Positions 13,720 through 17,771 of a stretch of DNA of 64,000 nucleotides are shown here, in pieces; within the stretch, counting starts at the first letter, position 1, and every line of letters starts with the position of its first letter. The notes below the pieces were generated by a model. The model saw nothing but the letters and a program-made list of their open reading frames with translations. It was not told the origin of the DNA and ran no database searches. Origin of the DNA: an uncultured Chloroflexia bacterium (lineage in GTDB: Bacteria > Chloroflexota > Dehalococcoidia > UBA2979); assembly GCA_963728205.1 (NCBI GenBank), contig CAVSIV010000006.1:576001-640000 (forward strand). Reading direction: 5' to 3'. The translations under genes were made by a program, and so were the position numbers.

Positions 13720-14115
13720 CGGGACTCACTCTCTGCGCGTGCGCCGGCCGGTCCGCTCCGGTGCGTGCGTCTCACGAGCGTAGCCGTCGGCCCGGCTTCG
13801 CTCGCGGCCCCGAGTGTACGGTGGGGGACAGGAGAGGGCACGACTCCCGGCCCGGCGCCGGCCGGCGCCCGGCACGGCTGCGGCGCCGCCCGTCTCGCCC
13901 GCGCGCGCTCTTTCAGCGCGCCTTCAGGGTCGAGCAGGACGCGAGCGCTACGGTCGGAACGGCACAGGTGCTGTGCCTGTTCCTCCCATGGGGCGCCGCC
14001 AGCTGCCTCTCTACCCCTCTGGATGGCGGCGTCCCCCTTCCCACCCACCCGGCCATCCGTCCCCGCCTGTCGCCGGCCGCAGACGGCAGTCGCCGTGCGG
14101 ACACGGGACGTGACC

Positions 14116-14227
14116 CACAGCGGCGGCAGACATGCCGCCGACAGGGCGCCGGCTACCGCCGGCGTTTCCGGGCGGCCCGCCCGTTCGGCGGCCGGGTCCT
14201 GTCGGCGGCATGTCTGCCGCCGCTGTG
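14116..14227. repeat. REP doublet variant
   Basis: CAGCGGCGGCAGACATGCCGCCGACAG ... inverted copy. Confidence 0.85.
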
Positions 14228-14324
14228 ACCTGGGGGCGCGAAGCCGGCTGCGCGCGAGCGGGGTTTCCGCCGCGACGCGACGCGGTACGCTCCGATCGCT
14301 CCCCCGGGACCGGGTCGACCGCCG

Positions 14325-14795
14325 ATGCCTCGACACGCGCCACGCCCGCTGCGACTGCTCGCCACGGCGGCCGCCGTCGCCGCGCTCGCACTGAGCGCCG
14401 CGTGCGCGCCGTCCGGATCGAGCGCCACCAGCGGGCCGGCGACCTGTCCGCCCGCCACCCCCGCCGCCGGCGCCGTCGCGGCGCACCCGTTCGTCTGCGT
14501 CGACACGCCGACGCCGGGCACGACCGTCGGGCGGGCCGTCGCCGTGGCCGGTCGCGCCGCGAACTTCGGGCCGTTCCGCGTGACGGTCGACCTGATCGAC
14601 GGCAGCGGCCTGATCGCGACGTCCGGCGTCGCGGAGTTCGGCGACGCGGGGGCGGCGGGGCACGTGCGCGCGTGGCGGATCGCGCTGTCGGTGCCTGCGG
14701 GCGTCGAGCCCGGCGAGATGACGCTGGTAGCGCGCGCGTTCGACCGGCAGCACCGCACGCTGGGGGAGCACGACGTGCCGGTGGTGTTGCGGTAG
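14325..14795 (+). CDS. Lipoprotein with a Gmad2-like Ig domain
   Basis: Lipobox LSAAC after a hydrophobic stretch; VDTPTPGTTV..VAVAGRA beta-rich domain. Confidence 0.6.
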   Translation: MPRHAPRPLRLLATAAAVAALALSAACAPSGSSATSGPATCPPATPAAGAVAAHPFVCVDTPTPGTTVGRAVAVAGRAANFGPFRVTVDLIDGSGLIATSGVAEFGDAGAAGHVRAWRIALSVPAGVEPGEMTLVARAFDRQHRTLGEHDVPVVLR

Positions 14796-14825
14796 CGGAG
14801 GCGGGGAGGTGTCCCCATCATCCAG

Positions 14826-16037
14826 TCAAGCGGCGACGCGCGAGCGCATGGTGTGTGTTGCGTCGTAGGCGGTGCCGGACTTGAGCATCGCAAGGATCAC
14901 GTCGCAGCGACGGCGAGCGAGGCAGATGATGGCGGCGTTGTGCTTCTTCCCCTGAGCGCGCTTGCGGTCGTAGAAGGCTCGGGAGGGCGGATGCCGCAGG
15001 GAGCAGAAGGCCGCGAGGAAGAGTGCATTCTTCAGCCGGTGGTTCCCCCGGCGGCTCCGCTTCTCGCCCCGGATGCTGGTACCCGACTGGCGCGTGACCG
15101 GAGCCAGTCCCGCGTAGCTCGCGAGCTGGGCGCCTGTGGCGAAGCGAGCGCCGTCACCGATCTCGGCGAGGATCTTCGCGCCGGTCCTGGGGCCCACGCC
15201 GGGGAGCGATATCAGGACCGGCCCCAGAGGGTGGCTGCGGAAGACCTCCTCGATCTGAACGAGGATCCGGCTGCGTCTGGCGTCGAGCCGGCCGAGTTCG
15301 GTGGCGAGCTCTGCAACGATCGGTCCAATGCGCCGCTCGCTTTGTACGGTGATCGTCTGGGCGTCGAGTGCGCTGAAGACCTCGTCCGCGAGGCGCGCGG
15401 CGACTCGGGGCGCCTGCCGGCGAAGCAGTCGCAGCACGGGACCACGGCCGGCCGCGCGGAGAGCCGACGGGGTGGGGTAGCGGGCAAGCAGCGCCCACGC
15501 CGCGGGGTGATCCAGTCGTGGACCGAGCACGGCCTCGAGTGGTGGATGCACGCTCGTGAGCATGTCGCGCAGCCGGTTCACCAGGCGGACTCGGTCCGCG
15601 GCGAGGTCATCGTCGTACCCCGAGAGGATGCGCAGCTCCTCGAGCAGCTCGTCGCCGACGGCCAGCCAGCGCAGGTTCCCTGGGTGGGTTCGTGCGAAGT
15701 CGGCAAGGACGAAGCTGTCGCGGACGTCCGTCTTCGCCTCGCCCGGGTAGAGATCTGCGGCTCGTCGCATGACCAGCCCGGGCACGTAGGCGACCGGGAC
15801 ACCGATCTCTCGGCACACGGCAAGCGTCAGCGCGGCGATCGACCCCGGCTGGTCCAACACCACTCCGGCATGCCCGATCGACGCTGCCGTCGACAGCAGC
15901 GCCTGAAGATCGGCCTGCTGATTCCGAACCGCGCGGGACGACAGCACCTCGCCGCCACCGTTGATCAGCGTTGCGTGGTGCTCGGTCTTTCCGACGTCGA
16001 GCCCAATGAACACATCGACCCGTGCCTCGGTCGGCAT
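14826..16037 (-). CDS. IS110 DEDD recombinase/transposase
   Basis: FIGLDVGK, KTDVRDS, LISLPGVG, LASYAGLAPVTRQSG, RRGNHRLK; GGAGG RBS. Confidence 0.96.
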   Translation of the reverse strand: MPTEARVDVFIGLDVGKTEHHATLINGGGEVLSSRAVRNQQADLQALLSTAASIGHAGVVLDQPGSIAALTLAVCREIGVPVAYVPGLVMRRAADLYPGEAKTDVRDSFVLADFARTHPGNLRWLAVGDELLEELRILSGYDDDLAADRVRLVNRLRDMLTSVHPPLEAVLGPRLDHPAAWALLARYPTPSALRAAGRGPVLRLLRRQAPRVAARLADEVFSALDAQTITVQSERRIGPIVAELATELGRLDARRSRILVQIEEVFRSHPLGPVLISLPGVGPRTGAKILAEIGDGARFATGAQLASYAGLAPVTRQSGTSIRGEKRSRRGNHRLKNALFLAAFCSLRHPPSRAFYDRKRAQGKKHNAAIICLARRRCDVILAMLKSGTAYDATHTMRSRVAA

Positions 16038-16044
16038 GCGCCCT

Positions 16045-16255
16045 CCGATCGCGACCGCGCTTTGCGCATCCGACCGGGTGCCTCGGCCTGCATCCACCTT
16101 ACGAACGAGCGCTCACGGCGCCGGTCCCCATCAGCGGTCCACGGCACCCAGCATCACCGGTGGCAACACCCCCCAGGTCCTCGAACAGACAGGGGGCAGA
16201 TGAGCCATGCCGGCGACGCCGGATGTGATCACGGGCCGCGGTCAGCCCGGCGATC
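16045..16255 (-). ncRNA. Putative bridge RNA in the IS110 left-end non-coding region
   Basis: Contains TGATGGGGAC (16133-16124), identical to the right end, and GTAAGGTG (16102-16095), complementary to the circle junction, either side of a hairpin; also a target-like GCCCCCT / GGGGGG pair; boundaries approximate. Confidence 0.75.
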
Positions 16256-16538
16256 GCGAAGAAGGTAAGGGGGGCCGGCAGCGGCGGCGCGCGGGCCGGA
16301 TGCCCGCGACAGGGTCGGCGGCCTGTCTGCCGCCGCTGAGGGCGGGCGGCGGCGGGCGGCGAGGCCGGCCGGACCGCGGGCGGGCGGCGGCGGGCGGCGA
16401 GGCCGGCCGGACCGTGGGCGGACGCCGGCGGGCGGCGGGGCCGGCCGGACCGCGGGCGGACGCCGGCGGTGCGCGCGACCGTTACGGTGGGGGACGGCGG
16501 GCGCGCCCACGCCGCCGCGAGACGAAGCCGGAGCGCGC

Positions 16539-17771
16539 ATGGCGTCCCCCGCACCCGCCGCTCCGCCTCGCTTCGACGCGCGCCGCAACGTCAGCCTGTT
16601 CTCCCTCCTCGGGCTCGTGCGCGACTTCAGCCCGCTCGTCGGCATCTGGGTCGTCTACCTCACCGGCTACCGCCACCTCACGCTCACCGAGGTGGGCGTG
16701 CTCGACGGCGCGTTCTGGGTCGTGAAGCTCGTCGCGCAGGTGCCGAGCGGCCTGCTGGCCGACCGCTACAGCCGCCGCTCGATGGTGCTGGCCGGGACGG
16801 TGATCGAGGCGTCGGGCGTCGTCGCGTTCGGGTTCGCCGCGGGGTTCGGCATGCTGCTGCTGTCGTACGTGCTGTGGTCGATCGGGATGGCGCTGAAGAC
16901 CGGCAGCAACGACCAGGCGCTGCTCTACGACAGCCTCGCCTTCGGCGGGCGCCAGCAGGAGTTCGGCGACCGCTTCGGGCTGTACCAGGCGCTGGCGACG
17001 GTGGGTGCGCTCGGCGGGGGGCTGATCGGCGGGTTCGTCGCCGCGGCGCTCAACCTGCGCGTCGCGGTGCTTGCCGCGGTCATCCCCTACCTGCCGGCCG
17101 TGCTGATCCTGCTCGCGATGCGCGAGCCGCCACGCTCGGCCACCGTCACCGCGCCGTCGACGTACCTGGCCACGATCGTCGGCGGCCTGGGCGGGATGTG
17201 GCGCGACCGCGGCCTGCGCTACGCGGTGCTGTTCTCGATCGCGCTCAGCTCGTTCGCGCCGATCTTCTCGCTGCTGGCGCAGCCCTTCATGAGCACGCAC
17301 CTGGTGCCGCTCGCGCTGTTCGGGGTGCTCGGCATCCCGGTGCGCGTGCTCGACGCCGGCGCCGCCTTCGCGAGCGGCCGCCTCGCGCGTCGCATCGGGC
17401 TGCCGCGCACGCTCGCGGCCGCGCTCGTGGCGATGACCGTGGGGGTGGCGGTGCTCACCGGCGTCGACCACGTGGCGGCGTTCGCCGGGTTCGTGATCGC
17501 ATTCCCCGCGATCTCGCTCGCGCTGCCGGCGCTGGGCGGGTACGTGAACGACCGCACGGGGCAGCGGGTGCGGGCGACGGTGCTGTCGCTCACGCCGCTG
17601 GGGACGTCGTTCGCGTGGATCTTCGTGAGCGTGAGCGGCGGGGCGCTCGCCGAGCAGTCGCTGCAGCTGGCGTTCGGGGTGCTGGGCGCGCTGGTGGTGA
17701 TCGCGTCGGTGGTGACGTACGTGCTGTGGCTGCGCGCGGAGCGGCCGCGGCTGGAGCGGGCGGGACGGTGA
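16539..17771 (+). CDS. MFS transporter
   Basis: QVPSGLLADRYSRR motif A, SNDQALLYDSL; about 12 TM segments. Confidence 0.9.
   Translation: MASPAPAAPPRFDARRNVSLFSLLGLVRDFSPLVGIWVVYLTGYRHLTLTEVGVLDGAFWVVKLVAQVPSGLLADRYSRRSMVLAGTVIEASGVVAFGFAAGFGMLLLSYVLWSIGMALKTGSNDQALLYDSLAFGGRQQEFGDRFGLYQALATVGALGGGLIGGFVAAALNLRVAVLAAVIPYLPAVLILLAMREPPRSATVTAPSTYLATIVGGLGGMWRDRGLRYAVLFSIALSSFAPIFSLLAQPFMSTHLVPLALFGVLGIPVRVLDAGAAFASGRLARRIGLPRTLAAALVAMTVGVAVLTGVDHVAAFAGFVIAFPAISLALPALGGYVNDRTGQRVRATVLSLTPLGTSFAWIFVSVSGGALAEQSLQLAFGVLGALVVIASVVTYVLWLRAERPRLERAGR

Follow-up and report, generated by a model that had tools for sequence, protein, structure and literature searches.

Known IS110 systems and the element in the window

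In the bridge RNA of IS621 (an E. coli element), as PMC11208160 sets it out, the left guides pair with the DNA's bottom strand and the right guides with the top strand; "handshake" positions pair with the last bases of the donor after strand exchange, and other first core bases are tolerated (Durrant et al. 2024, PMC11208160; Hiraizumi et al. 2024, PMC11208158). IS1111 elements are described in PMC11208160 as carrying their RNA in a long right end and as possessing subterminal inverted repeats of 7–17 base pairs (bp). Here, we will compare these systems with an element of 1.46 kb on the minus strand of a 64,000-nucleotide (nt) stretch of DNA from an uncultured Chloroflexia bacterium (contig CAVSIV010000006.1, positions 576,001 to 640,000), the whole of which we will call the window. 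Judged by its sequence and by analogy with IS621, this is very probably an intact insertion sequence of the IS110 group, most likely mobile as IS621 is, with a two-loop bridge RNA aimed at runs of C.

The likeness to IS621, as far as the published account describes it, covers the two-domain recombinase (a RuvC-like DEDD domain and a Tnp domain with its Ser), the long left and short right ends, the order of the predicted leader (5′ stem-loop, target loop, donor loop), the sense of the guides (the left guide reads as the top strand, the right guide as its complement), and the division of the putative promoter, whose −35-like part belongs to the right end and whose −10-like part belongs to the left. 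A handshake-like arrangement can also be read from the letters: in most relatives, the bases 3′ of the right target guide (..GUG) complement CAC, the three bases with which the right end closes. The differences lie in the protein (32.6% identity over 55% of its length, and 403 amino acids (aa) as against the 328-residue IS621 chain in the PDB), in the core (CT in IS621 but C or CC here, which we regard as variation within the kind), and in the target, which is a homopolymer here, so that one target guide complements the other; in addition, pairing of the left donor guide ends 2 nt before the core.

IS1111 elements belong to the same recombinase family as the element in the window, but the latter has a right end of only 17 nt and, among the 25 listed out of 27 inverted pairs, no inverted repeat that joins both ends. 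A left non-coding end (233 nt) far longer than the right (17 nt past the stop codon), together with the lack of long terminal inverted repeats, is a trait of the IS110 group. On this comparison, the element is a further IS110-group bridge RNA element of the established type, in a Chloroflexota host, and existing understanding of the IS110 mechanism is unchanged by it. What it adds is a cleanly decodable example from a Chloroflexota genome and, with its relatives, a natural series in which one scaffold bears varying donor and target guides, which backs the published guide rules by comparison and supplies orthologues whose core is of the C type and whose recombinase is longer.

The limits of the element were taken from the identity between two genomic copies and a 42-nt fragment: their shared sequence begins in the C-run before TTACCTT and stops after ..GGGGACAC. 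The features of the ends, in window coordinates, are as follows.

14809..16270, minus strand: whole element, counting a single core C at either end (16270 at the left junction, 14809 at the right), from the identity limits of the two copies and the fragment
16261..16270, minus strand: left end, core C plus the right-donor (RD) half CTTACCTTC, including the −10-like TACCTT (16267–16262); sequence reading and covariation with its guide
14809..14822, minus strand: right end, left-donor (LD) half GATGATGGGGACA plus core C; sequence reading, covaries with the leader guide in relatives
16271..16276, minus strand: left flank of the target, GG and then a C-run; sequence reading
14799..14808, minus strand: right flank of the target, C, T and four C, a single mismatch from the six C that family members usually have there; sequence reading

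Guides and their DNA partners

The motifs singled out in the earlier sequence-only reading (TTGACT, TGATGGGGAC, GTAAGGTG, GCCCCCT, GGGGGG and the GUC/GAC hairpin) all lie on the minus strand exactly where they had been placed. Four segments of the leader are the predicted guides.

16190..16199, minus strand: left target guide (LTG) region CUGCCCCCUG, in the sense of the left flank; left-flank matches in relatives and permutation test
16167..16177, minus strand: right target guide (RTG) CCUGGGGGG and a conserved UG; the G-run tracks the right-flank C-run in relatives, permutation test
16124..16133, minus strand: left donor guide (LDG) UGAUGGGGAC, in the sense of the right end; exact 10-nt copy of 14820–14811, covariation in relatives
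16095..16102, minus strand: right donor guide (RDG) GUAAGGUG, reverse complement of the predicted junction; three covarying pair types over 63 leaders

In the window element, the 10-mer TGATGGGGAC is found at 16133–16124 and again at 14820–14811 of the minus strand, and nowhere else in the 64 kb (0.10 occurrences expected; two or more in 1 of 100 shuffles). The segment GTAAGGTG at 16102–16095 is the reverse complement of the predicted junction, although the 8-mer CACCTTAC, present once, is also found at least once in 24 of 100 shuffles. A single element cannot prove the reading, since its target match is of low complexity and imperfect and exact 10-nt repeats are not rare here.

The comparative evidence comes from relatives. 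From 516 encoding stretches in species-representative genomes the best 80 were kept, and ends, flanks, and leader segments were located in 82 loci (these 80 plus the two copies in the host genome). The test statistic was the mean longest stretch shared between a leader segment and its DNA partner, with an element's own DNA or with DNA shuffled among elements over 2000 permutations. It was 7.83 for own pairings and 5.20 for shuffled ones in the case of the LDG, 7.76 and 5.86 for the RDG, 6.05 and 5.32 for the LTG, and 6.61 and 5.41 for the RTG; in each case 0 of the 2000 shuffles reached the observed value, and the wrong-strand controls gave no signal.

The donor guides can be followed letter by letter. 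The left end always reads C-N-TTAC and the leader always GUAA-N′-GUGG, with N and N′ complementary in 62 of 63 distinct leaders (G:C in 35, C:G in 15, A:U in 12; locus L048 is the one exception). The LDG, which follows a conserved ..CCGCU, changes together with the right end: ACGGGGACA, CATAGGGAC, GATAGGGACA, ATAGAAGCAC, and TAGAGGCAC each occur at both places of one element. In relatives, a U often stands opposite the core G, where by our reading a wobble pair could still form. The donor loop thus appears to be built as in IS621, with a left guide in the sense of the right end and a right guide complementary to the left end. The 10-nt copy and the junction-complementary 8-mer that the sequence-only reading had picked out are both present, and in relatives both guides covary with their ends.

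Four segments that track four DNA partners in the published strand sense would otherwise be hard to explain, and the comparison across some 60 relatives supports the positions and strand sense of the four guides, together with the stems that hold them.

Target guides and the C-run

GCCCCCT (16197–16191) and GGGGGG (16174–16169) stand on either side of a 3-bp GUC/GAC hairpin. Where the RTG is a run of five to seven G (38 loci), the right flank opens with six or more C in 36; the exceptions are the window copy and locus L063. In eight loci the RTG is AAAGGG, AAAAGG, or AAAAAG, and in seven of these the flank has exactly CCC, CC, or C before a T-run; the LTG of the T-run relatives matches 7–10 nt of their own left flanks. 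The earlier proposal that the two segments match the target needs to be divided: guides follow flanks at the level of the family, but in the window copy the match is loose, the longest shared stretches being 6 nt (left) and 4 nt (right). The second copy in the genome has a right-side match of 6 nt.

With one C taken as the crossover, the reconstructed unoccupied site of the window copy reads GG, six C, one T, four C, and GCC, and that of the other copy reads CCCT, nine C, and GGGC. In relatives whose guides are the same, the left flank has three to six C (the clade of the window element) or six to 10 C (Streptomyces) and the right flank six to eight C, so that the register seems to be set by where the C-run ends on the right. 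Either the window copy sits in an off-consensus site or it has mutated after insertion. Targeting of poly-C is not peculiar to this element, because the loci of ISEc20 and ISArsp5 have the same C-run flanks and the same loop.

Good targets are few in the host. Its genome is 72.5% GC and contains 111 C/G runs of at least 7, four of at least 8, and two of at least 9, whereas a naive composition model expects about 1570 runs of at least 8 and about 570 of at least 9; C/G homopolymers are thus strongly avoided, and the scarcity of good targets may explain the low copy number. This leads to a wider suggestion, namely that a bridge RNA clade reads a homopolymer, that the C5 and G6 guides close the target loop of the free RNA on itself, that the right edge of the C-run sets the register, and that target scarcity holds the element at two copies and pushes it into imperfect sites such as that in the window (six C, one T, four C). 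We offer this tentatively, as a possible but somewhat doubtful account. If true, nature would here offer an instance of a target loop that masks itself and of a copy number controlled by the rarity of targets. The term "homopolymer" was not found in the literature on IS110 and bridge RNA among the matches listed.

Two unoccupied nine-C runs on contig 6, near 312,370 and 1,838,115, are candidate free targets. One of the unoccupied nine-C runs has 16 nt in common with the reconstructed site of the copy on contig 4, and beyond this 16-nt match the script-built joins of the flanks found no paralogue in the host's own genome.

In a sister group from Streptomyces and Actinomadura (L025, L038, L058, L060, L069, L071, L077, and L079), the target loop reads a C-run followed by a T-run. 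By eye, the other strand of these flanks appears to encode a conserved ..GPNPVDRGK.., and in two Streptomyces plasmids (H17, H18) the matched stretch is annotated as "IS110 family transposase | IS5 family transposase," which suggests that this group inserts into IS5-family transposase genes.

Predicted fold of the leader

The predicted RNA consists of a 5′ stem-loop, a target-binding loop (TBL), and a donor-binding loop (DBL). Besides the guides, its parts are as follows.

16227..16255, minus strand: 5′ stem-loop of the predicted bridge RNA; minimum free energy and centroid folds, with a weak 3-bp helix in the consensus fold
16204..16224, minus strand: TBL basal stem, 5′ strand; consensus fold columns 53–72 pair with 119–137
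16178..16189, minus strand: TBL distal hairpin; own fold, consensus columns 88–90/103–105
16146..16166, minus strand: TBL basal stem, 3′ strand; consensus fold and duplex energies
16143..16149, minus strand: DBL basal stem, 5′ strand GGGUGCC, which pairs with 16082–16076; per-sequence folds and duplex energies
16108..16122, minus strand: DBL distal hairpin (GCGC/GCGC); own fold and representative folds
16076..16082, minus strand: DBL basal stem, 3′ strand GGCACCC; representative folds and duplex energies

When 63 leaders are folded to a consensus, the TBL appears with its basal stem, in which six pairs show 14–24 double changes, and with its small distal hairpin. The consensus does not recover the DBL, because of indels, and for the same reason a column-wise helix scan of the MAFFT alignment yields only 3–5-bp fragments for this loop. 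The DBL was, therefore, assessed by folding individual sequences in place of scanning alignment columns. With the guides held open, all 16 of the 16 folded representatives have the same plan, that is, a basal stem, an internal loop with both guides, and a distal hairpin, even though the letters of the basal stem vary (GGGUGCC/GGCACCC in the window element vs. GGCAUCGA/UCGGUGCC in Streptomyces). Duplex energies of the native strands are −31.4 kcal/mol for the TBL and −23.0 kcal/mol for the DBL, as compared with −24.8 and −21.3 kcal/mol for permuted strands, and 0 of 300 permutations reached the native value in either case. A leader with a target loop and then a donor loop, as proposed from the single sequence, is thus upheld by guide/DNA covariation over about 60 relatives and by compensatory changes in the stems.

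Proposed circle junction and cycle

The right end contains a −35-like hexamer.

14824..14829, minus strand: −35-like TTGACT, 15 nt ahead of the last base of the element; the TTGAC offset is fixed in relatives

This TTGACT (14829–14824) overlaps the TGA stop codon of the recombinase gene (14828–14826). Right ends were found without use of the hexamer in 72 of the 82 loci, and in 62 of these 72 TTGAC lies 15–16 nt from the last base, a fixed offset consistent with a conserved −35. When the two ends are joined at the C they share, the proposed spacing of TTGACT, 17 nt, and TACCTT is reproduced. A promoter at the circle junction is a reasonable inference from IS621.

By homology, the element would be excised as a circle in which the right end is joined to the left end at this C. 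Transcription from the junction would then give a bridge RNA of about 180 nt from the left end (approximately 16255 to 16076), with the recombinase mRNA behind it. Comparison with relatives suggests that the RNA presents its 5′ stem-loop, target-binding loop, and donor-binding loop in that order. In the donor loop, UGAUGGGGAC would pair with the right end's bottom strand, and GUAAGGUG, complementary to the top strand, would pair across the junction; in the target loop, the C5 and G6 segments would read the C-run, such that insertion leaves about six C to the right of the element.

Copies in the genome and mobility

The 4.1-Mb assembly has two full copies, that in the window and another on contig 4. 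Five bases, all within the gene, set them apart, and they must be separate insertions because their flanks are unrelated. At the left junction, both read flank, C-run, and TTACCTT; at the right junction, ..GGGGACACC is followed by T-CCCC in the window copy and by CCCC in the other. Comparison with this second copy, which the sequence-only reading had proposed as a check, bore out the identical ends and leader and a C-run site (nine C), but not the shared core CCT, since the second copy reads ...GACACC and then C, not T. The core common to ends and flanks is C across the family and CC in the window element.

Besides these, a 42-nt piece of the left end survives within a tandem array of an 87-nt unit (L003:1373–1640, contig 6, approximately 1.07 Mb from the window copy). 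The unit holds a CGGCGGC..GCCGCCG hairpin, and the 3′ edge of the 42-nt piece lies inside 9 nt that element and repeat share; the piece looks like the remnant of a third insertion after deletion between short homologies. The 87-nt unit has 360 blastn matches in the genome, 20 of them of at least 60 nt, and by eye the left flank of the window copy (16277–16330) resembles it.

One should consider whether the element has its bridge RNA by descent but has ceased to move in this genome, so that both copies and the fragment are relics. There are indeed only these two copies and the 42-nt piece, the promoter scan found no sigma-70-like site in the integrated element, and targets are as scarce as the run counts above indicate. 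However, both recombinase frames are whole, the proteins are 99.5% identical with the catalytic positions kept, the leaders are identical, and at least one transposition appears to have been recent because the flanks of the two copies differ. We regard relics as unlikely, though worth keeping in mind, and by its sequence the element looks intact and recently active.

Small shares of the element (0.14 or less) occur in four DNA sequencing runs. In two soil runs of one study, contigs of 151–207 nt are identical to parts of it, and one 153-nt relative ends at 16270. A joint with 21-nt sides in the DNA runs was regarded as noise. In a Streptomyces locus (L066, approximately 2690–2710), a right end directly abuts CGTTAC.., a left-end start, as would be expected for tandem or nested elements or for a captured junction.

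Weighing the evidence

Several results count against the reading of this locus as a mobile bridge RNA element. Because the loci are related by descent, and the RD/RDG pair types, three in number, go with three clades, the permutation counts overstate independence. Two further exact 10-nt direct repeats occur inside the same GC-rich 1.5 kb (three families in all), which makes the 10-nt repeat weak evidence by itself; moreover, its match ends 2 nt short of the core, and the target match of the window copy is of low complexity and imperfect, as given above. The fold of the whole leader only slightly beats shuffles (z −1.77; 9 of 200 shuffles equal it), and in the predicted fold of the free RNA the C5 and G6 guides pair with each other. 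The junction promoter scores 8/12 (5/6 for the −35, 3/6 for the −10), under the scan threshold, and its −10 shares bases with the donor half, for whose conservation there is a different reason. No RNA sequencing run containing the element was listed, and neither RNA nor circle was seen.

An empty site was also sought. A 3.4-kb query over the insertion, compared with 41 genomes (the host's own and 40 relatives), found none unoccupied; it matched diverged flanking genes (65–70% nucleotide identity) and related insertion sequence copies in three of the genomes (G012, G007, and G017), and an empty site could not be recovered because the relatives are too diverged. A scan of 14000–17000 with Rfam 15 at E ≤ 10 produced four chance matches, all far under the gathering score and none of a bridge RNA family.

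The copies of the element's ends within the leader might instead be subterminal repeats that are bound as DNA by the recombinase protein, as in many transposons, rather than an RNA guide. The 10-nt LDG is, after all, a direct DNA repeat of the right end, and RNA has not been seen. Protein-binding repeats are not expected to track the host flanks, however, and the loop segments follow both flanks in relatives with differing targets; the stems around the guides keep pairing through double changes, and each loop has one same-sense and one complementary guide, as in IS621, with flat wrong-strand controls. This makes binding at the level of DNA very improbable. That the leader is an ordinary structured 5′ untranslated region controlling translation of the recombinase, its guide-like matches being chance in GC-rich, low-complexity sequence, would suit the modest z-score, a target match of C-run with C-run and the other 10-nt repeats nearby, but we give it hardly any credence, as four segments covary family-wide with four DNA partners (0/2000 shuffles each) and RD and RDG are complementary in 62/63 leaders.

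Recombinase and relatives

The bridge RNA leader precedes the only sensible long frame of the element.

14826..16037, minus strand: recombinase gene, 403 aa, ATG at 16037, TGA at 14826–14828; Pfam, NCBIfam, and alignment to IS621
16041..16046, minus strand: Shine–Dalgarno-like GGAGGG ahead of the start codon; sequence reading

The product matches PF01548 (DEDD_Tnp_IS110; E 4.3e-43, full-length) and PF02371 (Transposase_20; E 8.5e-25) in Pfam, and the NCBIfam model NF033542, "IS110 family RNA-guided transposase," at 232 bits (cutoff 140). Among solved recombinase structures it matches IS621 (8wt6; E 2.5e-20) and ISCro4 (E 1.9e-17). D14, D104, and D107 align to D11, D102, and D105 of the RuvC-like DEDD domain of IS621, and D62 stands opposite E60 as the second acidic residue, in a stretch where the alignment is weak. 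S318 aligns to the Ser of the ..ESG.. motif of IS621, within a match to the C-terminal Tnp domain that spans residues 271–395. An NCBIfam model for TIGR-Tas endonuclease gave 56.9 bits, under its cutoff of 100, and was taken as a domain-level resemblance. By these alignments, the protein is an IS110-family recombinase of the IS110 group with its catalytic positions kept.

Among the 80 relatives kept, one with 80% aa identity is in a Chloroflexota metagenome-assembled genome (MAG) placed in the window's own family; others are in MAGs of Acidimicrobiia, Thermoleophilia, and Dehalococcoidia (near 60%) and in many Streptomyces (near 52–54%). In a search of 5.8 billion proteins, 4169 of 8000 scored candidates had E ≤ 1e-30, though their names were uninformative. 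The lineage had been called poorly sampled; this may be said of the host, which belongs to a lineage of Chloroflexota MAGs, but the transposase clade is heavily sampled on that count.

Named relatives were found by tblastn against annotated plasmids, with names as in the RefSeq records. The nearest are ISArsp5 (53.9% aa identity; Arthrobacter sp. FB24 plasmid), ISEc20 (50.9%; Shigella/E. coli), and ISSfl4 (50.4%), each over 96% of the protein, all from phyla other than that of the window host; E. coli genomes gave no DNA match to the element. The ISEc20 and ISArsp5 loci have the same plan, that is, a left C-run before C-G-TTAC, a right end TTGAC...ATAG(G/A)GGC followed by a C-run, and a target loop of C5 and G6–7. 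They differ from the window element in the variable RD base (G, with RDG GUAACG, vs. C, with GUAAGG) and in right ends without A before the last C (one locus each). ISMav6 (M. avium), the only mycobacterial relative compared, shares the architecture, with leader segments that match its own right and left ends, but is only 38.7% identical, and its guides and target are different. The sequence-only reading had called the element IS900-like, a label that these comparisons do not establish, although the left terminus of IS900 may resemble this one. The main text of PMC11208160 does not mention ISEc20, ISArsp5, IS900, or ISSfl4, though its supplementary tables may name them, and no publication was found that joins "IS900" with "bridge RNA."

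In the largest Streptomyces group (L021, L023, L031, L034, L037, L039, and others), the right end TTGAC..ATAGGGGCAC and its C-run lie 175–548 nt past the stop codon and not approximately 18 nt, so that these elements carry extra DNA after the recombinase gene.

In the window, the element is flanked by a gene for a Gmad2-domain lipoprotein and by one for an MFS transporter. Between the element and the transporter gene lies a GC-rich tandem repeat of a 38-nt unit (16340–16478; 3.6 copies, 92% matches).

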